Below, in pieces: positions 5,542-46,883 of a DNA stretch of 64,000 nt. Location of the stretch: positions 656,672-720,671 of the forward strand of contig CAVYQE010000002.1 of NCBI GenBank assembly GCA_963770565.1, written 5' to 3'. The position numbers and the translations under genes are program-made. The stretch comes from an uncultured Actinomycetota bacterium (GTDB lineage: Bacteria; Actinomycetota; Actinomycetes; JAFAQI01). The notes under the pieces are model-generated. The model did not search any database. It was not told where the DNA came from and saw only the letters and a list, made by a program, of their open reading frames with translations. Within the stretch, counting starts at the first letter, position 1. The number at the start of each line of letters is the position of its first letter.

Positions 5542-8145
5542 GTGGCGGCGGACAGCGACTCCGGCTTCAAGCCGCTTCACGACGATGTCCGCCGCCTCGG
5601 TGCTTTGCTCGGCCAGGTCGTCAGCGAGTTCGGCGGGCCCGATCTGTACGACGACGTCGAACGGCTCCGACGCGCGACCCGCGACGTCCGCCGCGACACC
5701 CCCGGCGCGATCGACCCGCAACAGCTCGTCGACGACCTCGACCTGGCCCAGGCCGAGCGGGTGGCCCGCGCCTTCACGGTCTTGTTCCACCTGGTCAACC
5801 TGGCTGAGGAGCGGCACCGGGTCAGGGTCCTGCGCAGCCGCGACCGCATCACCCTCGCGCCGGCCCGCGACTCGCTCGCCGGGGCGGTCGCTGAGCTGAC
5901 CCCGGACGTCTCCGCGGAAGCGCTCTTGGGCGTCGAGGTCCACCCGGTGCTGACCGCGCACCCGACCGAGGCCCGCCGCCGGGCCGTCGTTACCGCGCTG
6001 CACCGGATCGCCGCGGAGCTCGACCGCTTCGACGACCCGCGGCTCGGCGACAGCGAGCGAGCCGACGCCGACCGCCGGGTCCGCGAGGAGATCTCCACCC
6101 TCTGGCGGACCGCCCTGATCCGGTCAACCCGGCTTGACCCGCTCGATGAGGTCCGGGCCACGATGGCGGTCTTCGACGAGACGCTCTTCCGGCTCGCGCC
6201 GAGCCTCTACCGCGCGACCGCGCGGGCGTTGGGTGGCGACGGCACCGCGCCACCGCGCACCCCGGCGTACCTCGTCCTCGGCTCCTGGGTCGGCGGCGAC
6301 CGCGACGGCAACCCGCACGTCACGGCCGAGGTGACCCGCCAGGCGGTCGAGATCCAGGCCGACCACGTCCTGCGGGCGTTGGAGAACGCCGCAGATCGGA
6401 TCGGGCGCAGCCTCAGCCAGGCCGCCGACATGACCCCGCCAAGTCCGGCCCTCGCGGCCGCGCTCGACGACGACGCGAGGGCGCACCCCAAGGCCACCGC
6501 CGGGGTGGCCAGGGCGGCGGGCGGCCAGCCGCACCGGCAGAAGGTGCTGTTCGCCGCGGCCCGGATCCGCGCGACCCGGTTGCGCGACGTCGACCTCGCC
6601 TATCGTTCGCCCGCCGAACTGCTCGACGACCTCAGGCTCGTACAGGCCTCGCTCGACGCCGCGGGCGCGAGCCGCAGCGCGTACGGCGAGCTGCAGAATC
6701 TCACTTGGCAGGTGGAAACGTTCGGGTTCCACCTCGCCGAGCTCGAGATTCGCCAGCACAGTGAGGTGCACGCGGCCGCGCTGCGCGACCTCGACGCGCA
6801 CGGTGGCGAACCGGCCGAGGACATGACCCGCGAGGTGCTCGAGACGCTGCGCGCAATGGCAGCGCTGCAGGAGCGCTGGGGCGAGCGCGCCTGCCACCGT
6901 TACGTCGTCAGCTTCTGCGCCTCCGCCGCCGACATCGAGGCTGTCCCGCGGCTCGCCAGGCACGCGCTCGGGGAGCGCGTCGACCGGCTCGCGCTCACCG
7001 TCGTACCGCTGTTCGAGACCGGCGAGGACCTGCGGCGCTGCACCAGCATCCTCGATGAATGGGTCGCCGCGAACGGCCGGCCCGAGCAGCTGGAGGTGAT
7101 GCTCGGCTACTCCGACTCCGCCAAGGACGTCGGGCCGCTGTCGGCGAACCTCCTGCTGTACGACGCGCAAGCACGGCTCGCCGACTGGGCCCGGCAGCAC
7201 GGCGTCGCGCTCACGCTCTTCCATGGCCGCGGCGGCTCACTTGGGCGCGGCGGTGGGCCGGTCAACCGTGCGATCCTGGCCCAGCCGCCGGGCAGCGTGG
7301 CCGGCCGGTTCAAGGTGACAGAGCAGGGTGAGGTCGTCTTCGCCCGATACGGCAACCCGCGGATCGCCGAGCGCCACCTCGAACAGGTGACGGCCGCGGT
7401 CCTGCTCGCCGACACTCCGGCGGTCAGCGCGGCAATCTCTCGGGCCGCGGTCCGGTTTGCCGACCTCGGGCGGGTGATGGAGGAAGCCAGCCGGCTCGCA
7501 TACCGCGACCTGGTCGAAACCGACGGCTTCGCCGACTTCTTCGCCCGGGTCAGTCCGCTCGAGGAGCTCTCCGATCTTGCGCTTGGCTCGCGTCCGGCCC
7601 GTCGCGGCGGCGGCTCATCGGGCCGGGGTCGCACGCTCGCCGACCTGCGGGCGATCCCGTGGGTGTTCGCCTGGTCGCAGACCCGCTGCAACCTGACCGG
7701 CTGGTACGGCCTCGGCAGCGGGCTCGCGGCCGCTCCTGACGTCGACGAGTTGCAGACGGCGTACCGGGAATGGCCGCTGTTCACCGCGCTGATCGACAAC
7801 GTCGAGATGTCGCTCGCGAAGACCGACCGGGTCGTCGCCGAGCGCTACCTCGCCCTCGGCGACCGGCCCGACCTCACCGCGCGGATCCTCGCCGAGCTCG
7901 ACCGCACGACCGACCTGGTGCTGACCGTGCTCGGCACCGGCCGGCTGCTCGAACGCCGGCACATCTTGGCGGCGGCGGTCGACCTGCGCAACCCGTACGT
8001 CGACGCGCTCTCGCACCTCCAGCTGCGCGCGCTCCGCGCGCTACGCGGCCATGACTACGCCGACGCGGGCGAGGAGGAGCGGCTGCGCAAGCTGCTTCTG
8101 CTCAGCGTCAACGGCGTCGCGGCCGGCCTGCAGAACACCGGCTAA
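5542..8145 (+). CDS. ppc: Phosphoenolpyruvate carboxylase
   Basis: 867 aa with canonical PEPC motifs VLTAHPTE, GYSDSAKDVG, FHGRGGSLGRGGGP and C-terminal ...NTG. Confidence 0.95.
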   Translation: MAADSDSGFKPLHDDVRRLGALLGQVVSEFGGPDLYDDVERLRRATRDVRRDTPGAIDPQQLVDDLDLAQAERVARAFTVLFHLVNLAEERHRVRVLRSRDRITLAPARDSLAGAVAELTPDVSAEALLGVEVHPVLTAHPTEARRRAVVTALHRIAAELDRFDDPRLGDSERADADRRVREEISTLWRTALIRSTRLDPLDEVRATMAVFDETLFRLAPSLYRATARALGGDGTAPPRTPAYLVLGSWVGGDRDGNPHVTAEVTRQAVEIQADHVLRALENAADRIGRSLSQAADMTPPSPALAAALDDDARAHPKATAGVARAAGGQPHRQKVLFAAARIRATRLRDVDLAYRSPAELLDDLRLVQASLDAAGASRSAYGELQNLTWQVETFGFHLAELEIRQHSEVHAAALRDLDAHGGEPAEDMTREVLETLRAMAALQERWGERACHRYVVSFCASAADIEAVPRLARHALGERVDRLALTVVPLFETGEDLRRCTSILDEWVAANGRPEQLEVMLGYSDSAKDVGPLSANLLLYDAQARLADWARQHGVALTLFHGRGGSLGRGGGPVNRAILAQPPGSVAGRFKVTEQGEVVFARYGNPRIAERHLEQVTAAVLLADTPAVSAAISRAAVRFADLGRVMEEASRLAYRDLVETDGFADFFARVSPLEELSDLALGSRPARRGGGSSGRGRTLADLRAIPWVFAWSQTRCNLTGWYGLGSGLAAAPDVDELQTAYREWPLFTALIDNVEMSLAKTDRVVAERYLALGDRPDLTARILAELDRTTDLVLTVLGTGRLLERRHILAAAVDLRNPYVDALSHLQLRALRALRGHDYADAGEEERLRKLLLLSVNGVAAGLQNTG

Positions 8146-8187: not shown

Positions 8188-8272
8188 CCAAGCAATGTCA
8201 CATTGCCCCGGGAAACCCGGGGGCAATGTGACACCACCCCCTCAAAGTGCAGGGCAATGTCACATTGCTTGG
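8188..8272. repeat. Family-1 composite palindromic element, copy A
   Basis: CCAAGCAATGTCACATTGCCCCGGGAAACCCGGGGGCAATGTGACACCACCCCCTCAAAGTGCAGGGCAATGTCACATTGCTTGG. Three GCAATGTSACATTGC-like cores; the outer two form a 22-bp terminal inverted repeat. Sits between the convergent 3' ends of ppc and the 8276..9505 gene. Same element at 28291 and 34916. Confidence 0.8.
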
Positions 8273-9505: not shown

Positions 9506-9612
9506 GCGGAGGACCCTAGTGCAACGCTTAGCGGCCCTGCAGGCGATCCGCCAGACCAGCCCGAATCACCACTCCGCACCGACCTCATGCAGCGTGAAAC
9601 GTGCCGCGTGGG

Positions 9613-9635
9613 CCAAGCAATGTCACATTGCTTGG
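9613..9635. repeat. Solo 23-bp perfect palindrome of family 1 (CCAAGCAATGTCACATTGCTTGG)
   Basis: Equals the left and right terminal inverted repeats of the 85-bp family-1 element fused without the internal part. Lies 110 bp upstream of the start of gene 8276..9505 and 21 bp from the island attR-like repeat. Confidence 0.8.
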
Positions 9636-9653
9636 GCGACGGGGTGGGGCGTG

Positions 9654-9712
9654 GCCGAGGCTCCGGGATTTGAACCCGGGATGGGCGCGAACCCAAACCG
9701 CATTAGCAGTGC
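9654..9712 (-). repeat. Duplicated 3' portion of tRNA-Ser(GCU) (attR-like partial tRNA)
   Basis: 9657..9712 is identical over 56 bp to 26632..26687 (59 bp with one mismatch if extended to 9654/26629). The copy covers the anticodon stem through the T-arm and acceptor 3' strand of the tRNA at 26630..26718, in the same orientation. Confidence 0.85.
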
Positions 9713-10528
9713 TCCGTGAAGCTGTCCGTAGGTGGCCGCCGATGACCACCGATGACCGGCCTGGAAAGCGTTGATGCAGGTCAGGGCCTTGCGCCGGCCC
9801 GCGACGCACTTTGGCGGACAATCGCGGACGCCGCAACGTTGTGCGAGAACTGCAACTGAAACTGCAACTGGTGGCAACCGAGACAGTGACCCAGGCGACG
9901 ACGCCGGATGTGCGTCTGACAGCCCTCTCGTGGGTGAGGATCGAACCCATCGAGCAGGCCCAGGCTAAAGAGTGCCCGTGAACCCGCGCGGGCAGGCTCC
10001 TGACCTGCAACTTCACCGCAGAAGGCAGGATTTGAGCGTGGCTTCCTTACCGACCTGAACCGTGGCGAACATTTCCTGGCAGACGCTGATGCCCTGTGCA
10101 TCGAAATCACAATGGAGGTGCGGCGGCTCAGAACGGCACGCCCGCTCGGTGCGCGGTACGTACGCCGGAGGCTGCGGCGGCCAGCCATCGCTGGACGCCG
10201 CGGCGGAGTCCACGAACCCAGAACATGCCCCCGGGCGCTGGTGGGGCGCTCATGCGAGAGACGAGGTCGAGCATCAGAGGCGGCCTTTGTCGAAGCGGTC
10301 GGGGTCCGATGTGCCGGCCGCCTCGCTGACTCAGCGAGGGACCGCGACAGCCCAACAGTGCGAGTCGTTGACCGCGAGGAGCTCGACTCCGAGCAGGCTT
10401 GAACGCCAGACGGCGCTGCTTCCGCTCCCGCTCCGAGGCCGATGCATCCATCAAGTCCAGCAGATGCCGGTCAGATCAGCAACCGGTTGGGACGCCCGCA
10501 GCCGCGTCCTAACCCGCCCGGTCTCGCC

Positions 10529-12736
10529 TTAGTGCGAGAACCGCACCGTCGGCAGCGCGCGGCGTAGCCACCGCGGGCTGTACCAGGCGTTGTGACCTGT
10601 CAGGCGAAGGATCACAGGCAGGATGATCAACCGGATCGACAACGCGTCAAGGAAGACTGCCACCGCCAGGATGACGCCCATCTCCTTGGGTGCGAGCGGG
10701 CCGGACAGCGCGAATGTGAGAAAGACCGCAACCATGACGCCGGCAGCCGCGACGACTACCCGCCCCGAGGTCCGCAACGCGGTGCGCATCGCGTCGTACG
10801 GGTCGCCGGTCGCGTCGTAGTGCTCACGCGCGGCGGACAGCAAGAACAGCGTGTAGTCCATCGCGACGCCCGAGAGCATCGCTCCGAAGAACAGCGGTGC
10901 CCAGGCGTCCACAAACCCCTGCGGCTGGAAGTGAAGCAGCCCGGACAGGTGGCCGTCCTGGAAGATCAGCCGGGCGACACCGAACGCGGCTGCGATCGAG
11001 GCGAGGTTGGTGATCACACCGGCAAACGCGACAAGCGGGCTACCGAGCGCGACGAGCAGTAGCAGGAACCCGAGCAAGATCAGCAGACCGAAAACCAACG
11101 GCGTGCGTGCGCTGAGGACCTTCTGCAGGTCGTGGTTCTCGGCAGCAGCACCGCCGATCAGCGTGCCGGCCGGGAGCTCGGTACGGATCCGGTCGATGGT
11201 CGCTCCGGTCGTCGCGCTGGAAGCGTCTGTGGTTGGGACCGCAAGAAGCATCTCGTACCCGTGACTGGTGCCGCCTGGCATCACAGCAGCGATGCCTCGA
11301 TCGGCGCGAAGCGCACTGGTTGCCTCGCCGACCGACGAGCTCGGCGCCACGATTTGCAGGGTGCCCGGTGCGCCAGGACCGAACGCGCTCACGACCTGTT
11401 CATAGCCGGCGCGTGCCGACTGGTCCGCGGGCACGATCGCGATACTCGGCATCCCGGTGCGCAGGCCCAGCACGGGCCAGGCGAGCATCGCGAGAAGTGC
11501 GACCACAAACGACGCGGCCAGCCAGGGACGGCGGTGCAGCAGACCGCCCCACCGATGGAGCAGATTCTCCAGGCCGCGCGGGAGATGCGGCTCGTGGAAG
11601 TGTCGCCGTTCGAACGCCTTGATCTGCCTTCGCGCCTCGCCGAACGGGAGTGCTCCATTGTTGATCCGCGGGCCGAGTCGGCCGAGCACGGCGGGCAGCA
11701 GCGTCAGCGTCGCGGCAAGTACGGCGACAACGGCGAGCATGATCCCGAGCGCCATACTGCGGAACGCCGGGCTGGGCACGATCAGCACGGTCGACAGCGA
11801 CACGAGGACGGTCAGGCCGCTGAACGCGACCGCCTTGCCAGCGGTTGCCATCGTCTCGCCGACGGCACCAATCGCGTCGTCGCCACCACGGCGGGCCATC
11901 GCGTGACGAAACCGTACGACGATGAACAAGGCGTAGTCGATGCCGAGCGCAAGTGCAAACATCATGGCGAAGTTCAAGGCCCAGATGCTGATCGGTGCCA
12001 CCCTGGTCGCCACTACGAGAGCTCCCGCGGCGCTCAACAGCCCGACGAGGGTCAACATCAGTGGCAGGCCTGCTGCAACGAGGCTGCCGAAGGCAAGCAC
12101 GAGGACGGCCAGCGTGACCGGCCAGGAAAGGATCTCTGAGCGAATCATCGCCGAGTGATTCACCTTGTTGAAGTCCGACCACAACGCGCTGTCACCGGTG
12201 AGCTCCACTGACACCGACGAACTCGACAGCTTCGACAGGGGACCGGTCAGCGCGTCTGCGGCGCGAACCATGTCATTGGCGCCGGCTGCGGCACCGGCTT
12301 GGATCACCCCGGTCCGGCCATCACGTGAGAGGCTTACACCCGCAGTCGGACCGACCACTGTGCTCACTCGAGGGTCGGCGCGCAAGAGTTTCTCGACGCG
12401 GCTCACTGCCGCTTGAGCGGCCGGGTCCGTCGCGATTGGCCGGGTCGAGTCATGAACGACAACCTGCAGTGCAGTGGCGCTCAAACCGGCGAAGTCGCGG
12501 GCGATCACCGCACGAGCCTGGACCGACTGGCTCCCGTTCGCCTGCCACCCGGCTCCCGCTAAGGACGAGTCCACCTTAGGCGCGAACGCGCCGAAGCCAA
12601 CAAGAACGACCAACCAGCCGAGGAGCACGATCCGGAAGTGAGTGGCAGCCCACACGCCCAGCCGGGCCAGCCACGCCGGGCTCGGTGTCGCTGCGGGGCT
12701 CGGCGGGGTCGTCGCGCGCGGGGCGACGGTTGTCAT
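10529..12736 (-). CDS. MMPL-family (RND superfamily) membrane transporter
   Basis: 735 aa. N-terminal TM followed by a large periplasmic loop, twice-repeated six-TM bundles, typical MmpL architecture. Last gene of the cstB-like/cstR-like operon; AAGGAG RBS at 12741-12746. Confidence 0.85.
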   Translation of the reverse strand: MTTVAPRATTPPSPAATPSPAWLARLGVWAATHFRIVLLGWLVVLVGFGAFAPKVDSSLAGAGWQANGSQSVQARAVIARDFAGLSATALQVVVHDSTRPIATDPAAQAAVSRVEKLLRADPRVSTVVGPTAGVSLSRDGRTGVIQAGAAAGANDMVRAADALTGPLSKLSSSSVSVELTGDSALWSDFNKVNHSAMIRSEILSWPVTLAVLVLAFGSLVAAGLPLMLTLVGLLSAAGALVVATRVAPISIWALNFAMMFALALGIDYALFIVVRFRHAMARRGGDDAIGAVGETMATAGKAVAFSGLTVLVSLSTVLIVPSPAFRSMALGIMLAVVAVLAATLTLLPAVLGRLGPRINNGALPFGEARRQIKAFERRHFHEPHLPRGLENLLHRWGGLLHRRPWLAASFVVALLAMLAWPVLGLRTGMPSIAIVPADQSARAGYEQVVSAFGPGAPGTLQIVAPSSSVGEATSALRADRGIAAVMPGGTSHGYEMLLAVPTTDASSATTGATIDRIRTELPAGTLIGGAAAENHDLQKVLSARTPLVFGLLILLGFLLLLVALGSPLVAFAGVITNLASIAAAFGVARLIFQDGHLSGLLHFQPQGFVDAWAPLFFGAMLSGVAMDYTLFLLSAAREHYDATGDPYDAMRTALRTSGRVVVAAAGVMVAVFLTFALSGPLAPKEMGVILAVAVFLDALSIRLIILPVILRLTGHNAWYSPRWLRRALPTVRFSH

Positions 12737-13107: not shown

Positions 13108-14484
13108 TCACGTCGCGACCAACTGGCACCACGCCGTGTAGCCACCGAGCAGATCCGAGACGTCACGGGCACCGGCGCGCGCAAGGACGCTCGACGCCAC
13201 GATCGAGCGCCAACCAGTCGCGCAGTACACGAGGATAGGTTTGTCGAGGTCGAGTTCCGCGACCCGGCTCGGCAACTCGGCCAGCGGGATCGCGACGGCG
13301 CCGGAGAGCATGCCAGCGGCACGCTCGGTGGGGTTGCGCAGGTCGACAAGTTGAAGCTCGTCGACATTGTCGATGGCGTTCAGCGCCTCGGCGACGGTCA
13401 ACCGGCTCGAACGCGCAGTCTGTGCCGGGTCGGCACCCAGGAGACCGATCGGGTCGGCGACGTAGCCAATGACGTTGTCGTATCCGATCCGGGCGAGCCG
13501 CATCGCGTCACGTTGCTCCGCGCCGGTGGGACTGAGCAAGATCACCCTCGTTTCGGGTGGGAGCACGGACCCCACCGTCTCCGCGAGCCTGCCCTCGCCG
13601 CTCACGTTGACGGATCCGCTGAGATGCCCGGCGGCGTACTCCCCCGGCTCGCGGGTATCGAGCACGACGGCACCGGTCACCCGTTCTGCCTCGACGGTGG
13701 CCAGGTCCAGCGCCGGAACGGTCCGTGCGCCGTCTAGGCGTTCGTGATCCTGCCGGTTGAGCAGGGCGTTGAAGCCGAAATAGCCGGGTGCCGCCGGTTG
13801 GTCGGCGGTGACGATCGCGACGAACTGGTCCTCGGCCATCGGCCGGCATGCGTAGTTGAGAACTCGCTGCTCACCGATGGTCGACTGGCGCTCGGTCGAG
13901 AGGTTCTTGCCGCAGGCTGAGCCCGCACCGTGGGCAGGGAAAACGCGCACGGAATCGGGCAGACCCATGAGCTTGACCTGCACCGACTGGTACAGCCGGC
14001 GGGCGAGCTCGTCGGCGGTCACTCCCACCGAGGCCAGCAAGTCGGGTCTTCCGACATCGCCGATGAACAGCGCGTCGCCGGTGAGGACGCCCCACGGCAC
14101 CTCGTCAACAGCATGTTCGTAGACCAGCACGCTGATTGATTCCGGGGTGTGGCCTGGAGTCGCCATGATCTCGAGCGTCACGTCGCCGAGGTCGATCCGC
14201 TCACCATCGCGAAGGGCGCGGAACGCGAAGTCCGGCGCCGCCTCCTGACCGAAGCCGATCCAGGCACCCGTCGCAGCGGCGAGCTCCAAGTGCCCCGCGA
14301 CGAAGTCGGCGTGGAAATGGGTGTCGATCACCCCGACGATGGTCAGCCCCGCGCTGGCCGCCTCGGCGAGGTAGTCCTCGACGTCCCGACGCGGGTCGAC
14401 GACGACGGCGTGACGAGACGCCTCGTCAGCGATGAGGTACGACGCCTGCGACAGGCACTCGATGTAGTGCTGCGTAAAGATCAC
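13108..14484 (-). CDS. CstB-like persulfide dioxygenase (MBL fold) fused to two rhodanese domains
   Basis: The N-terminus VIFTQHYIECLSQASYLIADE... aligns with the CstB/ETHE1 start. Metal motif THFHADFVAGH. C-terminal rhodanese with active Cys (VYCATGWRS) preceded by an inactive rhodanese-like domain. GTG start at 14484 with GGAGG 5 nt upstream; the alternative is a leaderless ATG at 14505. Confidence 0.85.
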   Translation of the reverse strand: MIFTQHYIECLSQASYLIADEASRHAVVVDPRRDVEDYLAEAASAGLTIVGVIDTHFHADFVAGHLELAAATGAWIGFGQEAAPDFAFRALRDGERIDLGDVTLEIMATPGHTPESISVLVYEHAVDEVPWGVLTGDALFIGDVGRPDLLASVGVTADELARRLYQSVQVKLMGLPDSVRVFPAHGAGSACGKNLSTERQSTIGEQRVLNYACRPMAEDQFVAIVTADQPAAPGYFGFNALLNRQDHERLDGARTVPALDLATVEAERVTGAVVLDTREPGEYAAGHLSGSVNVSGEGRLAETVGSVLPPETRVILLSPTGAEQRDAMRLARIGYDNVIGYVADPIGLLGADPAQTARSSRLTVAEALNAIDNVDELQLVDLRNPTERAAGMLSGAVAIPLAELPSRVAELDLDKPILVYCATGWRSIVASSVLARAGARDVSDLLGGYTAWCQLVAT

Positions 14485-14503
14485 TTCTGCCTCCGCTGCT
14501 ACC

Positions 14504-26235: not shown

Positions 26236-26629
26236 GCGAGTCGCGTCGGAATGTCGCGGCCGTCAGCGTAGGTGGCCGGCACGGGCAGCTCGACGGTCAC
26301 GTTGGCGACGCTCTATGACTACGAGGCGCGGCCGGTCGGACGCACCATTGCGCCGGTGGGTCATCTCATTGCCCGGCCGAGGTTGAGCAGAACCGGCAAA
26401 TTGTCGGTCGACGTCTGCTGCCGGGCGCCTCGCCATGCGGTCGCTGCCGTCGCTTGCCCGGTCTAATAGCGTATAGAGGCGGGGCCGATTCATCGAGTGC
26501 CCGGATCGCTCACGAAACCTCGGATGCCGGTTCCGGATCGGTCCGGGCCGATCAGGTGAAGATGATCTGGCCGCCGGCGGCCTGCAAGCGAGTTACATCA
26601 GTGTGTTCAGCGAAAGCGCAGGTCAGCAG

Positions 26630-26718
26630 CGGAGGCTCCGGGATTTGAACCCGGGATGGGCGCGAACCCAAACCGCATTAGCAGTGCGGCGCCATAGACC
26701 GGACTAGGCGAAGCCTCC
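26630..26718 (-). tRNA. tRNA-Ser (anticodon GCU), type II with long variable arm
   Basis: Reverse complement GGAGGCTTCGCCTAGTCCGGTCTATGGCGCCGCACTGCTAATGCGGTTTGGGTTCGCGCCCATCCCGGGTTCAAATCCCGGAGCCTCCG. Anticodon loop CTGCTAA, long variable arm, T-arm CCGGGTTCAAATCCCGG. Its 3' 56 nt are duplicated at 9657..9712. Confidence 0.9.
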
Positions 26719-28290: not shown

Positions 28291-28372
28291 CCAAGCAATG
28301 TCACATCGCCCAGCCCTTTGTGGGGGTGATGTCACGTTGCCCCCACGAAGTGCGGGGCAATGTGACATTGCT
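28291..28372. repeat. Family-1 composite palindromic element, copy B (degenerate)
   Basis: CCAAGCAATGTCACATCGCCCAGCCCTTTGTGGGGGTGATGTCACGTTGCCCCCACGAAGTGCGGGGCAATGTGACATTGCTC. Lies between the stop of 28372..30078 and the start of 26749..28194. Confidence 0.75.
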
Positions 28373-34915: not shown

Positions 34916-35000
34916 CCAAGCAATGTCACATTGCCCCCCACTCCGTGGGGGCAATGTGACACCACCCCAGGAAAGACCGGGGCAATGTGACATTGCTTGG
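34916..35000. repeat. Family-1 composite palindromic element, copy C
   Basis: CCAAGCAATGTCACATTGCCCCCCACTCCGTGGGGGCAATGTGACACCACCCCAGGAAAGACCGGGGCAATGTGACATTGCTTGG. Its 22-bp termini are exact reverse complements of each other. Lies between the ptsI stop (35006) and the hydrolase start (34895). Confidence 0.85.
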
Positions 35001-41559: not shown

Positions 41560-42834
41560 TCAGCAGGCGAAGGTCTTCGTGGCCTGGCCGGCGAGGTGGG
41601 TCGGGTCGCCCGGATAGCGCGCGACGATCCGGCACTTGCCGGCCGACTGGCGCCTGAAGGTGGCCGACAGCTTGCTGCTGTGGCTCAGGACCTTGTGCAG
41701 CGCGGAGACCTTGCGGAACTTGCCACCCCGCTTACGCAGCAGCGTCACCACCGCGTGCCGGCCGGCCCGGCTCGGCTTGACGGTCGCCGAGACGGTCAGA
41801 CTGGCCGCGGTCTTCGTCACGTTCGCGGACACAGCGGTGCCCAGGACCTTGTGCGTGATCGGTGGGCTCAGTCCGCCACTGCCGTCGACGACCTGCAAGG
41901 TCACGGTGTAGGTCCGCACCCGCGACGGCGATGCGGGATAGACGTGCTTCACCTTCGGGGTCATCGTGGTTGCGGTCTTGCCATCGCCGAACGTCCACTT
42001 CCACTTCGCGATCTGCCCGCCCGGACTTGCCGCCGACGACCCCGATCCGTTGAAGCTCGCGGTCGATCCGGACAGCGACTGGCTGAACTTCGCCGTCGGT
42101 GGGAACAACGCGAGGTTGAGCGACACCGTGGCCGACTCGGAAACCGCCTTGGGCTCACCGGGCAGGACGTCGTCGACCTCGGTCGAGTATTCGACCGCGA
42201 GCTCGATCTCGTCGTCGGCGGGCAGAGTGAACGACTCCGCCCAGCCCTGCGAATGCGGCTTGGTCGGCGTGCACTCACCACTGAACACGTGGAAGTGCCG
42301 GTGGATGGTCGAGCCGATGAGGTCGACCGTCACCGATGCGCACGAGTCGTTGGGGTCGGTGTTGGTCGCCTGGATGAAACCACTGAAAAACACCGGCACG
42401 GGCACCGTGGTCGTGAGGTCGACGCTGAACGAGCCGTCGGAGTCTGCGTCCGGCACCGCCGGGCCGTTCCCGGTCGCGGTCGCGTGCGAGGTCGACGTAC
42501 CGTCCATCGCGATGTCGTTGATCGGGCTGATCGGGAACGGCGGCTGACCAGAGGTCTCGAGGCTGGACGCCTGGCTGATGAACGCCTGCGCCGTCCCCTC
42601 TTGCGCCGAGGAGGCCTTAGGCGCACGGTGCGTCCCGAAGGTCAGGAAGTTGTCACCGGATACGTCGTCCTGCGCCTGATGGTTGTCGTCGGCGAACTGG
42701 AAGTAGTCGAGATCGGCTGAGTCACTCTCGACCTGCACCGGCGGGTCCGGCGCCGCCATCGCCGGGATGGCCGAGAGCGCGGGCAGGCACAACCCCGCCG
42801 CAAGCAGAATCGCGATCCTTCGACGTCCGCGCAT
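41560..42834 (-). CDS. Secreted PKD-domain protein
   Basis: Signal peptide MRGRRRIAILLAAGLCLPALSAIPAMA. PKD motif WKWTFGDGKTATTMTPKVKHVYPASPSRVRTYTVTLQVVDGSG. C-terminal Ig-like domain shared with other secreted proteins in the window. Confidence 0.75.
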   Translation of the reverse strand: MRGRRRIAILLAAGLCLPALSAIPAMAAPDPPVQVESDSADLDYFQFADDNHQAQDDVSGDNFLTFGTHRAPKASSAQEGTAQAFISQASSLETSGQPPFPISPINDIAMDGTSTSHATATGNGPAVPDADSDGSFSVDLTTTVPVPVFFSGFIQATNTDPNDSCASVTVDLIGSTIHRHFHVFSGECTPTKPHSQGWAESFTLPADDEIELAVEYSTEVDDVLPGEPKAVSESATVSLNLALFPPTAKFSQSLSGSTASFNGSGSSAASPGGQIAKWKWTFGDGKTATTMTPKVKHVYPASPSRVRTYTVTLQVVDGSGGLSPPITHKVLGTAVSANVTKTAASLTVSATVKPSRAGRHAVVTLLRKRGGKFRKVSALHKVLSHSSKLSATFRRQSAGKCRIVARYPGDPTHLAGQATKTFAC

Positions 42835-42936
42835 ACCGGCCCCTCACCTAGGACCGAGCCCCCCGGCTCGCTGCGGGCAGGATAACCGCGCGGGGACCAA
42901 GACGCACTACGTTCACTCAGATCACCCGGTGCCCGA

Positions 42937-42997
42937 GTTGATCATGGCGATCCGAGCGGTCTGGCTAACGAAACGCGCGCTTTTCGCCATGATCAAC
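42937..42997. repeat. Family-2 palindromic element, copy D1 (61 bp)
   Basis: GTTGATCATGGCGATCCGAGC...GCGCTTTTCGCCATGATCAAC: 13-bp terminal inverted repeats GTTGATCATGGCG / CGCCATGATCAAC. Lies about 100 bp upstream of the PKD-protein start. Second copy at 45820..45880. Confidence 0.75.
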
Positions 42998-43007
42998 TCG
43001 TCGTGGG

Positions 43008-43388
43008 CTAGCGGCCTTCGAGCCAGCCGCCGAACGACATCACCGACCAGCCTCCGACCGGTGTCTGCGGCGTCAGCGGCTCGGGCGGGGTCATCGGCGT
43101 CTCAGGCGTCATCGGGGTGATCGGCCGGACCGGCGGCGTCGGGGTCACCGGGATCGCGGTGCCTTCCGGCTTCTGATCCGACCCCCACGCGACCACGCAG
43201 CCCTGCCGGTCCAGACAGGTGGTTCCGTCGACCGGGCCGCACCAGCGATCGCCTTCGACCGACCAGGCGTTGCCGTCCACGACGTAGGCCACCCAGTGCA
43301 TCGTCGGATCCCAGATGTCGGCCGTGGTCGGGTCGTACCAACCCACGAGATTCGCGCCAGCGTCGTACAACGCCCTCATGGCCTGCAC
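43008..43388 (-). CDS. Hypothetical protein with Pro/Thr-rich C-terminus
   Basis: Good GC3 bias but no recognisable domain and no signal peptide. MRALYDAGANLVGWYDPTTADIWDP... Confidence 0.3.
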   Translation of the reverse strand: MQAMRALYDAGANLVGWYDPTTADIWDPTMHWVAYVVDGNAWSVEGDRWCGPVDGTTCLDRQGCVVAWGSDQKPEGTAIPVTPTPPVRPITPMTPETPMTPPEPLTPQTPVGGWSVMSFGGWLEGR

Positions 43389-43401
43389 CCTAGACGACGC
43401 G

Positions 43402-44496
43402 TTACCCGGCGCTTCCGGACTTGAGGTACGGCGTTAAGTCGAGTCCGCCGGCGGCGAGGATGTGACCGTTCGCGACGTCTTGGCACCCCCGGGCGCGATA
43501 CCAGAGATCGACGTCCGGCCCGGCGGGGTAGTGGAAGGCCACGATATCGATCGAGCCGTCGTCCATCGGGCAATAGAACACGGCGCCATCGATGTGCCCG
43601 AGCCGGATCTGCAATGCCTGCCGCGACAGTCGCGCCGCGCTGCCGGTCGACAGGACGATGCGTCGGGCCAGGCTCAACCGCGCCTTCGCGTTGAGTCCGC
43701 CGTACTCGCAGATCACAGCCGAGCTCGGGCGGGCCGACGGGAGCAGCGCCTGGTCGAGCCCTGGGCCCGGGTTGGTGACCCCGACGTCGCCCTGGTCGCT
43801 GCGCGGGCATCCGCCGGACACTGTGACCCGCAGTCTCGGGCCGGTCGCGATGTCGCGCACTGGTCGCGGGTCGATCCAGTTGCCCTCGCCATCAGCTCGG
43901 ATGATCGTTCCGCCTCGGACCGTCGCGAGACCGACGTCGAGCTGCAACTCCTGGGCGTATGAGCGGTCGGGCTCGTTCCAAGCCATTCCCTCAGTGGTGA
44001 TGCCGCCGGTCACCGTTCCGCCACTCGACGTACCGCTCTGTTCGAGACCGGCCGGCGGGTGCGCCTTGAGATAGGCGAATACGGTCGCCATCGGCATCGT
44101 CGTCCGCCAGAAGCGATGCCGGTCGACCAACGACGACCCCTGTGGGATGCCCACCGCGGGTCCCGCCAACTGCCGTTGCGGGCCCTTGATCGGCGTGATG
44201 CCGGACGGCAACCGCGCGAGGCGGAGCAACCGGGCCGCCTCCTTGCGGGTCGCCGCCCGGTTCTGCGCGGCGGTCGCCGTCGAGATCGGTTGAGTCGAGG
44301 CCTCGGCGCTGGCGGAGGGGCCGGTCGACGATCCGGGCGGCACACCCTCAGCGCCCGACGACCCGGCCGTGCACCCCACGCAGGCCAAGACGGTCGCCGC
44401 AGCGGCCACGCCGAGACTCAGCCTCACAGCACTTGGACGCGGCGGAGCATCACTCGGTTCCCACTGGCGGGCCTTTCTCAGTATCGGCCGGTGCAC
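43402..44496 (-). CDS. Secreted/lipoprotein-like hypothetical protein
   Basis: N-terminal hydrophobic segment LGVAAAATVLACVGCTAGSSG followed by a Ser/Thr/Ala-rich linker; 364 aa. Confidence 0.5.
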   Translation of the reverse strand: MHRPILRKARQWEPSDAPPRPSAVRLSLGVAAAATVLACVGCTAGSSGAEGVPPGSSTGPSASAEASTQPISTATAAQNRAATRKEAARLLRLARLPSGITPIKGPQRQLAGPAVGIPQGSSLVDRHRFWRTTMPMATVFAYLKAHPPAGLEQSGTSSGGTVTGGITTEGMAWNEPDRSYAQELQLDVGLATVRGGTIIRADGEGNWIDPRPVRDIATGPRLRVTVSGGCPRSDQGDVGVTNPGPGLDQALLPSARPSSAVICEYGGLNAKARLSLARRIVLSTGSAARLSRQALQIRLGHIDGAVFYCPMDDGSIDIVAFHYPAGPDVDLWYRARGCQDVANGHILAAGGLDLTPYLKSGSAG

Positions 44497-44501
44497 GAGT
44501 C

Positions 44502-45680
44502 TTACGGCGTTGCGCCGGCCGCCGTGGCGATCACGCCGACCAGTCCGGCAGCGATAAGTGTGAGCACGAGGTTGCGTCGCAACGGGATCAGCGCGACCGC
44601 CGCCGCCGCGAGCACGCCGTATTGCCAGGGCTGGGTCAGGGCGCGCGCGAGTGGCACCGCCGAGCCGAGGATGGCACCGATCGCGGCGGGTCCGGCGCCT
44701 TCGAGGAAGGCGCGGGCACGCTTGTCGTTACGAACCCGGCCGAAGCGGTCGGCGCCGAGCAGGACGAAGCCGAACGACGGCGCGAAGGCGACGAGGGCAG
44801 CAAGGAGTCCGCCGCCGCCGACGGCTGCGGCGTACCCGACCACGGCAACGGTCTGCACCACCGGGCCGGGAGTGATCTGGCCGAGCGCGACGGCGTTGAG
44901 AAACTGCCCGCCGCTCATCCAGTGGTAGTGGCTCACCGCGTCGGCCTGCATCAGCGGGATGATCACGAAGCCGCCGCCGTACGACAGCGCACCGACTTTG
45001 AACGCCACCCAGCACAGGCTGAGCAAGGCTCCGCTCCCGACCGCGCCGGCAACAAACGGCAACGGCGCGATCGCGAGGGTGCGCGCCGACGGTGAGACGG
45101 CCCGCCGCGCGACGATCTCGATGAGACCGCACGCAAGAAGCACGACGACCAGCCAGGGACCGACCGTCGCGGCCGCGACGCCGCCGGCGACGAGGTAGCC
45201 GATCCAGCGAACCCGGTGACTGCGCCGGGCCCAGCTGGACGGGATCAAACCGGTGCCCGCCTGTACGGCGACGGCCGCAACCGCTGCCCCGGTTCCGGCG
45301 CCGGCCCCGAGAACCCAGCGAGGTGGCGAGCCGGACAGGAACAGCGCGCCAAGGGCGAGGATCACCACCAGCCCCGGGACGATGAACGCGGCACCGCCGA
45401 CAAGTGCGCCCACTCGCCCGCGCAGCCGCCACGCGCAGTAGATCGCGAGCTGGGTCGAGGCCGGTCCCGGCAACAGGTTGCAGGTTGCAATCGCGTCCTC
45501 GAAATCCGCGGCGTCGATCCAGCCTCGTCGGTCGACACAGAGCTGTCTCAGCAGCTTGATGTGAGTGGGCGGCCCGCCGAACCCGATGCACCCGATCCGG
45601 CCCCACTCGCGAGCGACCGTGAGCAGTGCCGGCGCGGCAGCAGTCCCGCCATCGACGAGCTCGCGTTCACTCACCGGCAC
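44502..45680 (-). CDS. chrA: Chromate ion transporter (CHR family)
   Basis: Duplicated CHR halves with GFGGP..H and FKVGALSYGGGFVIIPLM motifs. The track start (45716) would overlap tRNA-Ser(UGA) by 25 nt; start moved to an in-frame GTG near 45674-45680. Confidence 0.8.
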   Translation of the reverse strand: MPVSERELVDGGTAAAPALLTVAREWGRIGCIGFGGPPTHIKLLRQLCVDRRGWIDAADFEDAIATCNLLPGPASTQLAIYCAWRLRGRVGALVGGAAFIVPGLVVILALGALFLSGSPPRWVLGAGAGTGAAVAAVAVQAGTGLIPSSWARRSHRVRWIGYLVAGGVAAATVGPWLVVVLLACGLIEIVARRAVSPSARTLAIAPLPFVAGAVGSGALLSLCWVAFKVGALSYGGGFVIIPLMQADAVSHYHWMSGGQFLNAVALGQITPGPVVQTVAVVGYAAAVGGGGLLAALVAFAPSFGFVLLGADRFGRVRNDKRARAFLEGAGPAAIGAILGSAVPLARALTQPWQYGVLAAAAVALIPLRRNLVLTLIAAGLVGVIATAAGATP

Positions 45681-45691
45681 CGTCGCATTTG

Positions 45692-45780
45692 CGGAGGGCG
45701 TGGGATTCGAACCCACGATGACGCTTCCGCGCCATAGCGGTTTTCAAGACCGCCGCCATCGGCCACTAGGCGAGCCCTCC
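45692..45780 (-). tRNA. tRNA-Ser (anticodon UGA), type II
   Basis: Reverse complement GGAGGGCTCGCCTAGTGGCCGATGGCGGCGGTCTTGAAAACCGCTATGGCGCGGAAGCGTCATCGTGGGTTCGAATCCCACGCCCTCCG. Anticodon loop CTTGAAA, long variable arm. Confidence 0.85.
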
Positions 45781-45819
45781 GAGTCGTGAGGCTACGGGAT
45801 CGAGCTCAGGTCCACCCGG

Positions 45820-45880
45820 GTTGATCATGGCGATCCGAGCCGATTTTGGATCGGAGACCGCGCTCTTCGCCATGATCAAC
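45820..45880. repeat. Family-2 palindromic element, copy D2 (61 bp)
   Basis: GTTGATCATGGCGATCCGAGCCGATTTTGGATCGGAGACCGCGCTCTTCGCCATGATCAAC. Same termini and length as D1 with a different centre (internal CCGAT/ATCGG sub-palindrome). Lies 40 bp upstream of the tRNA-Ser(UGA) 5' end and abuts the corA stop. Confidence 0.75.
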
Positions 45881-46883
45881 GTGTCCCGATGTCTCCCTCT
45901 GGTGGCTGCCGACGAAACCACGCGAGCAAAATCACGCACGGAACGACGAGACCACCGAATCCGAGAACGGCGAACTCCCGCACGCTGTCCATGTGGCCGA
46001 CCAGCCACCCGAAGTTCTGCCCGAAGAAGCCGGTGACGAACGTCAGTGGCAGGAACACGGTGGCGATCTTCGTGAGCTGCTCCATGGACGCGTTCTGCCG
46101 GACGCTGACCCGGGTCTGCTCGACCGAGACCACGGCGATGTTCGCTTCGAGGATCGTGGTCAGCAGGTCGCGCTGCGCAGCGACCTCCTCGTTGATCAGC
46201 AGCAGGTGGTCATGGACGTCGCGGAAGTACGGCACCAGCTCGGTCTCGCGAACGGCGCGCTCATTGATCGAAAGCACGGCGAGCAGCGGGTGCACTGCCC
46301 GGTAGAAGTCGGTCACCTCGCGGCGCAGGAAGTAGATCCGCTCGGTGGGAGCGACGGTGCCTGAGAAGACGGTGGCCTCGACCTGCTCGATGTCGCGTTC
46401 CAGCTCGGCAACGACGGGCGCGTAGCCGTCGACGATCTGATCGAGGATGGCCCACAGCGCGGAGTAGGGCCCGACCTCGAGCAGTTCGGGGCGTTGTTCG
46501 AGTCGTTGCCGTGCATCTCGCAACTCGGACGCGACTCCCTGGCGGACGGTGATCACGAAGCTGGGGCCGATGAACACGCTGATCTCGCCGAAGTCGACTT
46601 CCTCGCGCTCATCGTCGTAACGTGCCGTGCGCAGGATTACCAGATGCACACCGCCGTCGTACGGCTCAACCTTCGGCCGTAGATGCAGCGACTGCGCGTC
46701 CTCGACCGCGAGTTCGTGCAGGCCGAAGCTCTCGCTCACCAACGCAAGCTCGTCGGCGGAGGGCTCGAACAGGCCTAGCCAGACGAACCCTCCGTCGCGA
46801 CACCGCTGGGCCGCCTCTTCGAGGGACATCGGCGGGCTCTCTTGGCGACGCCCGTCACGGTAGTGAGCACAGTCGATGATCAT
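45876..46883 (-). CDS. corA: CorA-family magnesium/cobalt transporter
   Basis: Two C-terminal TM helices with a GxN-type loop (FFGQNFGW); soluble N-terminal domain; 335 aa. Confidence 0.8.
   Translation of the reverse strand: MIIDCAHYRDGRRQESPPMSLEEAAQRCRDGGFVWLGLFEPSADELALVSESFGLHELAVEDAQSLHLRPKVEPYDGGVHLVILRTARYDDEREEVDFGEISVFIGPSFVITVRQGVASELRDARQRLEQRPELLEVGPYSALWAILDQIVDGYAPVVAELERDIEQVEATVFSGTVAPTERIYFLRREVTDFYRAVHPLLAVLSINERAVRETELVPYFRDVHDHLLLINEEVAAQRDLLTTILEANIAVVSVEQTRVSVRQNASMEQLTKIATVFLPLTFVTGFFGQNFGWLVGHMDSVREFAVLGFGGLVVPCVILLAWFRRQPPEGDIGTR

Follow-up and report, generated by a model that had tools for sequence, protein, structure and literature searches.

Dispersed palindromes of Actinomycetota chromosomes and a bracketed gene for an AbiEi-like/DUF559 nuclease

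The window analysed here, a 64,000-nt stretch of the chromosome of an uncultured Actinomycetota bacterium (contig CAVYQE010000002.1, forward-strand positions 656,672 to 720,671), contains two 61-bp palindromes, designated copy 1 and copy 2. Both lie within a run of minus-strand genes, each just 3′ of one of them; the order of the run is corA, copy 2, tRNA-Ser(tga), a chromate transporter gene, an unknown open reading frame (ORF), a Bflower-domain ORF, copy 1 and a PKD-domain gene. Palindromes with the same end sequences were found in other Actinomycetota genomes, and pairs of them bracket a gene whose product of about 295 aa consists of an AbiEi-like DNA-binding module fused to a nuclease domain of the Vsr/EDxHD type (DUF559).

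Two palindromes of one dispersed family

The original prediction described a pair of 61-bp elements with a shared left 21 bp, near-identical right ends and different centres. The sequence at both positions (Table 1) bore this out: the left 21 nt are identical, the last 21 nt differ by one base and the centres differ. The 13-bp termini, hereafter the boxes, were indeed inverted repeats and are identical in both copies (GTTGATCATGGCG / CGCCATGATCAAC); the box has four exact matches in the window, all of which are the ends of copies 1 and 2. With up to two mismatches allowed, the window contained 10 matches compared with 1.67 expected, a number reached in none of 100 shuffles. A repeat finder paired the two copies as family D4 (77% over 71 nt), and a profile built from the 61-nt copies of other genomes matched the window at copies 1 and 2 only (E value about 1e-13). 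When three flanking bases are included, the perfect palindrome of copy 1 spans 42934-43000 and has a 17-bp arm. Each window copy was predicted to fold into a single long hairpin (-35 to -39 kcal/mol; z score -3.0 to -5.3).

Table 1. Coordinates of the palindromes, their parts and the neighbouring genes in the window
Feature	Position	Strand	Description
Element copy 1	42937..42997	.	61-bp palindrome, reads GTTGATCATGGCGATCCGAGCGGTCTGGCTAACGAAACGCGCGCTTTTCGCCATGATCAAC
Element copy 2	45820..45880	.	61-bp palindrome, orientation as copy 1, reads GTTGATCATGGCGATCCGAGCCGATTTTGGATCGGAGACCGCGCTCTTCGCCATGATCAAC
Left box of copy 1	42937..42949	+	GTTGATCATGGCG
Right box of copy 1	42985..42997	-	Same 13-mer on the minus strand
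Core of copy 1	42950..42984	.	Variable, partly self-complementary
Left box of copy 2	45820..45832	+	
Right box of copy 2	45868..45880	-	Holds the corA stop, TGA 45876-45878 on the minus strand
corA (CorA Mg2+ transporter, PF01544)	45876-46883	-	C-terminal tail ends in the TGA of copy 2
tRNA-Ser(tga)	45691-45780	-	5′ end 39 nt from copy 2
Bflower-domain ORF	43008-43388	-	Stop 10 nt from copy 1
PKD-domain gene	41560-42834	-	Start 102 nt from copy 1

A genome-wide search for the box had been suggested with the original prediction, which named only two copies genome-wide as the outcome that would speak against a dispersed repeat. That outcome was not obtained. Scanning of one genome per species (185,579 species) for two exact boxes separated by 20-50 nt returned 90 stretches with 94 copies in 18 assemblies, each from a different species. 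Between 1 and 19 copies were present per assembly, a count that covers exact boxes only in assemblies that are mostly fragmented metagenome-assembled genomes (MAGs). The largest number, 19, was found in a Nakamurella MAG and was chiefly of a 72-nt form; uncultured Actinomycetota MAGs had up to 14 copies with a second, inner TGATCA pair, a Frankiaceae MAG had 9, several Jiangellaceae MAGs had 8-9 each (61-62 nt) and Micromonospora sp. NPDC047074 had 2. A Mycobacteriales MAG was also among the carriers. The family thus falls into length classes of 61, 62 and 72 nt, and viral contigs contained no copies. A 49-nt palindrome with the same 13-nt boxes was present in Methylobacterium iners (L061, 5043-5091) at the extreme end of a 5-kb contig and could be due to contamination, chance or transfer. 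In Micromonospora sp. NPDC047074, tandem repeats of GCGATGATCAACGGGGCGGTGCCTGAGG directly follow an element (L056, about 2478-2560), and the right box with its G-rich flank has therefore been duplicated there.

The anatomy of the family was examined in 51 aligned 61-nt copies. The boxes were invariant in all 51, which had been selected on that box, and the terminal inverted repeats are perfect over 13-14 bp. The core of 35-46 nt is lineage-specific but remains self-complementary. Among the 24 mirrored pairs, 11 varied on both sides; the stem covariation score was 0.215 versus 0.097 in shuffles (none of 500 as high), and 89% of cells were paired versus 25-52% with the partner slid. Every element, including the inner sides of gene-bracketing copies, is flanked by a C-rich tract at -14 to -3 (50-64% C) and a G-rich tract at +3 to +14. 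Copy-specific outer stems were considered and rejected: elements paired hardly better with their own flanks (-19.9 kcal/mol) than with swapped ones (-18.9 kcal/mol), and the tracts are therefore taken as a feature of composition. They may belong to the element or reflect a preference for certain targets. The C and G runs were extreme in L093/L181 around 9830-9890 and 10990-11040, where the G-runs of L181 are long enough to resemble G-quadruplex motifs.

Copies persisted vertically. At 13 orthologous sites between species, cores were 78% identical, much like the 100-nt flanks at 74%, and boxes were intact, a comparison biased by the exact-box search. The second copies within 8-kb blocks are free of this bias, and all of these were perfect (L017, L018, L021, L088 and the window). 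No box relics with one or two mismatches were detected in the roughly 0.7 Mb fetched. The window copies themselves were recovered in independent material: copy 2 is contained in a Logan contig of an independent assembly (L174, run ERR11594399) that is 100% identical to the window across the element, and a Frankiaceae MAG (L085) has an ortholog of copy 1 with flanks about 93% identical, identical boxes and 27 of 35 core positions identical. At an orthologous site in two Nakamurella species (L034 2975-3046 and L067 1680-1751), the flanks are collinear and the 46-nt core is inverted, which would result from inversion of the core within its pair of boxes or from a second insertion of the element.

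Target-site duplications and empty sites, both named in the original prediction as things to look for, were not found. Direct flank repeats of 3 nt or more were absent from all 95 copies compared (about one expected), a comparison that would not reveal a palindromic GATC duplication hidden within the boxes. An origin by insertion of ATGGCG...CGCCAT into a GTTGATCAAC palindrome with GATC duplication found no counterpart in the window, which has no exact GTTGATCAAC and only near-matches that look coding. All cross-genome flank alignments spanning the junction were of occupied sites. For the window copies, relatives of CorA (80-86% identity) were not syntenic and gave no empty site, and the sole match to the Bflower protein was from the same species, where the site was occupied.

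Gene contexts were taken from a crude gene call based on GC content at third codon positions, and the counts are approximate. Of 81 classified sites, 45 were tandem, 22 convergent and 14 divergent, and 6 of 96 lay inside a called ORF. Across the family, elements lie close to the stop codon of the preceding gene (median roughly 20 nt); in tandem contexts the distance is typically -5 to 30 nt, and in about 12 cases the stop codon is a TGA within the box. The corA stop of the window is of this kind, being supplied by copy 2 as bases 3-5 of the box on the minus strand; the tail of CorA that runs into copy 2 is not conserved among homologs. The original prediction placed copy 1 about 100 bp upstream of the PKD gene and copy 2 about 40 bp before the 5′ end of tRNA-Ser(UGA), touching the corA stop, and the measured distances agree (Table 1). 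It is correct that the elements precede the PKD gene and the tRNA, but this is the less informative half of the context, since the family hugs the stop codon of the preceding gene; the proximity of copy 1 to the Bflower stop had not been mentioned. An element in an unrelated MAG (L069, 6473-6534) resembles copy 2 in lying 50 nt upstream of a tRNA-Ser gene (6585-6671), and its left neighbour is not corA.

Features of an RNA-level signal were sought in the elements. A hairpin is present, but no T-run or U-tract and no terminator-like site was found in 42700-46000, and a promoter consensus scan returned nothing on the elements. The only Rfam matches at gathering score were tRNAs, and the elements had no match at E values up to 10. 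Wobble-type mismatches in tandem contexts showed no bias to the transcribed strand (5 G-U versus 13 A-C). Together these results argue for an element that acts as a DNA-level feature, with possible secondary effects on RNA.

The original prediction counted the 61-bp pair as a second, independent repeat family of the window, and this stands: the family is separate from the 82-nt family, has conserved inverted termini and has many copies elsewhere. The 82-nt family consists of palindromic elements of 82-85 nt at 8188-8269, 28291-28372 and 34916-35000, with a half copy near 9610-9640, and is also present in a related Frankiaceae MAG (L088, 7842-7926). Its elements contain two or three boxes GCAATGT(C/G)ACATTGC (box GCAATGTSACATTGC), each itself palindromic, like the boxes of several of the nuclease-linked families described below. 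Elsewhere in the window, a 59-nt duplicate (98%) of the 3′ part of tRNA-Ser(gct) (9654-9712 and 26629-26687), 17 kb from the intact gene, resembles an attL/attR scar left by an integrated element; MMPL and PAP2 ORFs are adjacent, and inspection beside either end of the duplicated fragment showed no integrase.

A nuclease gene bracketed by the palindromes

Four close pairs of copies were identified in the scanned genomes. In three of them, from Frankiaceae (L088), Nakamurella (L017) and Jiangellaceae (L018), the copies are 0.9-1.1 kb apart and the whole gap is occupied by one ORF of about 290-310 aa with DUF559/REase_MTES_1575 matches; the fourth pair (L079) is interrupted by the block edge. 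Genes of the bracketed type were found nowhere else in the 90 blocks, and the window contains no DUF559 gene. Homologs reached through the protein sequence were also bracketed, namely L091 (91% identical to the Frankiaceae protein), L092 (67%) and L093 (58%), the last of these by variant boxes (GCGATCATGG...CCATGATCGC). All seven nuclease genes first examined were bracketed by copies of the element.

The bracketed nuclease of L091, P0005, comes from run ERR11594399, as does a contig that is 100% identical to the window and includes the exact CorA. Because of this shared sequencing run, P0005 is probably the nuclease of the window organism itself.

A polymorphism was found in Jiangellaceae, in which L018 has the arrangement element-gene-element, whereas in L051, from another species, the same flanks enclose only one element. 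Homing of the gene to a position beside an element and its loss by recombination between the two direct copies would both fit. A motif (C/T)TGTGGA(C/T) was noted 10-20 nt after the upstream palindrome and before the nuclease start in L088, L091, L092, L093, L095 and L104; it is conserved even where the boxes differ and could represent a promoter or an additional binding site.

The bracketed gene encodes a member of a family with more than 550 homologs (domains PF09407, PF04480 and PF18741). In an AlphaFold2 model (predicted local distance difference test score 95), the first 200 or so residues matched the AbiEi structure 6y8q (Foldseek E value 8e-4). Consistent with this assignment, PADLOC AbiEi models matched the N-terminal part (E value 2e-6) and PF09407 was found in homologs. 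The last 100 or so residues matched the catalytic domain of I-Bth0305I, 3r3p (probability 1.0; template modelling score 0.69 on the target), and by sequence the C-terminal part matched the DUF559 structure 3hrl (E value 8e-5). Residues E188, E192, D225, E236, D238, H242 and D249, acidic and His positions of the Vsr/EDxHD type, were invariant in 54 homologs. The matches of the flanked gene were to DUF559, MTES_1575 and AbiEi only, and not to Y1 HuH RAYT proteins (defined below) or to any transposase family. No gene for an AbiEii (DUF1814) toxin adjoins the nuclease gene; its neighbours include purM, DUF3073, AMP-binding, sigma factor and ProS genes, among others.

The bracketing was further examined in metagenomes by protein alignment, which gave 80 loci at 35-100% identity, 67 of them with both flanks. 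In 38 of the 67, the upstream and downstream flanks were more alike than any mismatched control pair. The shared segments were palindromes of 54-66 nt with a fixed spacing relative to the protein match, their box pairs lying at about -150/-105 and +30/+75, and their ends were lineage-specific (for example GTGATCTTGACGT, CGATCATGCA, CGTGAACTCGACG, GACTGCGACGTTG, TAGTCCGGACTA, TAGTCGCGACTA and TTTGCCGGCAAA, and also GTGATCTTGACG). Since related nuclease-linked boxes such as TAGTCCGGACTA lack GATC, GATC as such is not the common denominator of these families. In the genome of L181, an intergenic 78-nt palindrome (14425-14502) is present as a solo copy with different boxes (CGCGCTGATCTTCGC), 3.5 kb from a nuclease gene with boxes GCGATCATGG; the core of this palindrome resembles that of Nakamurella (GGCGTGTCG), and this genome may hold a second palindrome family.

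Box similarity tracked protein identity: pairs of loci with the same box had proteins 63% identical versus 38% for other pairs, a result as high as this being obtained in none of 2000 Mantel-type permutations. At the intergenic locus between purM and DUF3073 (L088/L091/L092/L094, L104 and L134), nuclease variants of 45-100% identity were found, each with its own flanking palindrome (GTTGATCATGGCG, CGCCGAGCC or GAGTGCGACG), and the nuclease gene and its sites appear to have been replaced together in a cassette-like manner. The occurrence of different boxes with different nucleases at a constant locus speaks for a functional pairing in addition to common descent.

Interpretation of the palindromes and their nuclease

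These data make it probable, in our judgement, that the window palindromes are solo, non-autonomous copies of a nuclease-partnered, low-copy family dispersed in Actinomycetota chromosomes, comparable to the repetitive extragenic palindromes (REPs) and their REP-associated tyrosine transposases (RAYTs) but with a different enzyme. The bracketed AbiEi-DUF559 nuclease most likely uses the boxes as its recognition sites. If REP/RAYT and the EDxHD homing endonucleases are taken as models, recognition of the boxes would fall to the AbiEi-like module, and the nuclease domain would nick or cut at or between them. Copying repair would then maintain the elements and occasionally spread them, and the gene itself would be moved between elements. 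The only requirement placed on the core would be self-complementarity, and in the window the corA stop codon and a very stable 3′ hairpin would be side effects. The driver may be either the nuclease, spreading the palindromes, or a gene that parasitises them.

Tentatively, the proposal can be widened to an unrecognised class of selfish or co-operating chromosomal elements, widespread in soil Actinomycetota, in which lineage-specific palindromes of about 55-75 bp bracket a nuclease with an AbiEi winged helix-turn-helix (wHTH) module and a Vsr-type (DUF559) fold. In at least one clade the nuclease would maintain solo palindromes at gene ends, giving a REPIN/RAYT-like replicator built on a PD-(D/E)xK-type enzyme. 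We regard this wider claim as possible, at slightly less than even odds.

Several observations weigh against a nuclease-partnered family of this kind. The placing of nuclease and window in one genome rests on a shared sequencing run and not on a shared assembly record. The gene-bracketing copies are mostly direct repeats, whereas the REPs that flank RAYT genes are inverted. Box and protein are not linked in a simple way, because nucleases beside identical boxes are only 30-40% identical across orders and a 58%-identical relative has altered boxes. Dispersal was seen in the GTTGATCATGGCG family only, and a search of 14-21 kb around three nuclease genes, each for its own palindrome, returned no solo copies from other box families. 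At most 19 exact copies were counted in any one genome, a modest number; neither a target-site duplication nor an empty site was found, and our only ground for inferring mobility of the solo copies is that they occur at non-homologous sites. Binding and cleavage, and likewise the origin of solo copies, are proposed by analogy with other systems.

The rival that survives best holds that the elements are host features, spread or arisen otherwise, and that the DUF559 gene is a free-standing parasite of the homing-endonuclease type that uses them as safe landing sites without mobilising them. The likeness of the catalytic domain to EDxHD homing endonucleases agrees with such a gene, as do its presence and absence at a site that keeps one element (L018 versus L051), the cassette-like swaps of nucleases with box variants at purM/DUF3073 and the very divergent nucleases beside identical boxes; flanking copies in direct repeat likewise fit insertion next to a resident element, or its duplication. 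In most sampled lineages, however, the palindromes were seen only around the gene, which fits a gene that brings its own sites, and even where the locus is constant the box follows the protein. A landing-site parasite would also leave unexplained what spreads the solo copies and why the boxes stay perfect. We consider it unlikely.

Less likely again, though still deserving mention, are operators of an AbiEi-like transcription factor, with autoregulation at its own gene and a dispersed regulon, or roadblock or insulator sites, and no mobilisation of DNA. Proteins of the AbiEi family autoregulate through inverted repeats in their promoters (PMC7319586), many lineages have the upstream palindrome at a constant spacing from the gene, and perfect boxes at orthologous solo sites suggest host-level selection. 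The solo copies, however, lie just after stop codons and not at promoters, the gene is always followed by a second copy and the catalytic residues of the nuclease are invariant, while the lineage-specific cores shared by non-homologous sites require copying.

A role confined to RNA was judged very improbable; the elements would then serve as factor-independent terminators, mRNA 3′ stabilisers or a small RNA, and their amplification would be due to the usefulness of hairpins where genes end. The hairpins are very stable and lie 3′ of genes, with an enrichment at convergent sites (22 of 81). Against this, the elements lack a U-tract, a terminator-like match and an Rfam family, their wobble-type mismatches are not biased to the transcribed strand, 14 of 81 sites are divergent (by crude gene calls), and the stability of a stem leaves a 13-nt box that is invariant across orders unexplained.

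A classical miniature inverted-repeat transposable element (MITE), derived by internal deletion from an insertion sequence of the DDE type and bounded by 13-bp terminal inverted repeats, would account for the small size, dispersal and perfect termini, but it can hardly be entertained when target-site duplications are lacking, no long or transposase-bearing element with single boxes at its ends was found among 179 loci, the linked gene is of no transposase family and is flanked by whole palindromes and not halves, and copies persist at orthologous sites across species.

Comparison with known systems

No report linking DUF559/AbiEi-like nucleases to dispersed palindromes was found in the literature searched, from which most subscription journals were missing, and the box sequences matched unrelated primers only. 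To our knowledge, REP/RAYT is the only well-described bacterial case of short repeats kept over long periods by a single-copy, vertically inherited enzyme. If the nuclease-partnered reading is true, a second and mechanistically unrelated pairing of repeat and enzyme, found in high-GC Gram-positive bacteria, would be added, and such a lifestyle would have evolved more than once. It would also give a first, testable function to a very large and unexplained actinobacterial family of DUF559/AbiEi-like proteins and would supply each nuclease with a natural target of about 60 bp for use in biochemistry; because the boxes change with the protein, a scaffold of programmable specificity might be obtained. 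For annotation, the elements account for odd stop codons, such as that of corA in the window, and for the conserved "non-coding" boxes found where genes end.

Three known systems share features with the one described. I-Bth0305I is the prototype of the EDxHD (Vsr-like) homing endonucleases and acts as a homodimer with a footprint of about 60 bp around a pseudopalindrome (PMC3239194). The footprint is the size of the present elements, and the bracketed nuclease shares with this enzyme a catalytic fold, conserved E..D..H..D residues, a multidomain build and presence or absence of its gene at a fixed site. The present gene differs in being free-standing between chromosomal genes, in neither an intron nor an intein and not phage-borne; its DNA-binding module is AbiEi-like, and its putative target is a multi-copy palindrome that is intact on both sides of the gene.

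AbiEi is the antitoxin of the type IV AbiE toxin-antitoxin systems (PMC7319586, PMC3985639), and proteins of its family bind inverted repeats at their own promoters (PMC7319586). The N-terminal two-domain module is alike by fold and sequence, and here too inverted repeats lie upstream of the gene. In contrast, the AbiEii (DUF1814) toxin gene is not a neighbour and the module is fused to a nuclease domain; repeats are present after the gene as well and, in the GTTGATCATGGCG family, are dispersed around the chromosome. MITEs such as Correia and Nezha are likewise small, intergenic, bounded by terminal inverted repeats and capable of folding, but the present elements have neither a target-site duplication nor a parent that shares their ends and carries a transposase, and they persist for long periods at orthologous sites. 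The system is neither a classical MITE nor an AbiE toxin-antitoxin pair, and the same holds for homing endonucleases carried by introns or inteins and for intrinsic terminators.

The closest likeness is to the REP/REPIN-RAYT systems of Proteobacteria. In both, short extragenic palindromes are dispersed mostly at the 3′ ends of genes and are inherited vertically at orthologous sites, the repeats stand on either side of a single cognate gene, and their sequence varies with the lineage of that gene. The enzyme differs, being an AbiEi-like wHTH module with a Vsr/EDxHD (DUF559) nuclease here and a Y1 HuH (IS200/IS605-like) transposase in RAYT. The present elements have no GTAG head, starting instead with GTTGATCATGGCG or, in other families, TAGTCCGGACTA or GTGATCTTGACG; they are longer, at 61-72 nt, with two invariant boxes, and their hosts are Actinomycetota. 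REPs number tens to hundreds per genome, compared with the 1-19 exact-box copies found per mostly fragmented assembly, and the gene-flanking copies are mostly direct here and inverted in REPs. Because enzyme class, GTAG head and flanking orientation all fail to match, the system follows the logic of REP/RAYT but is not a member of that family.

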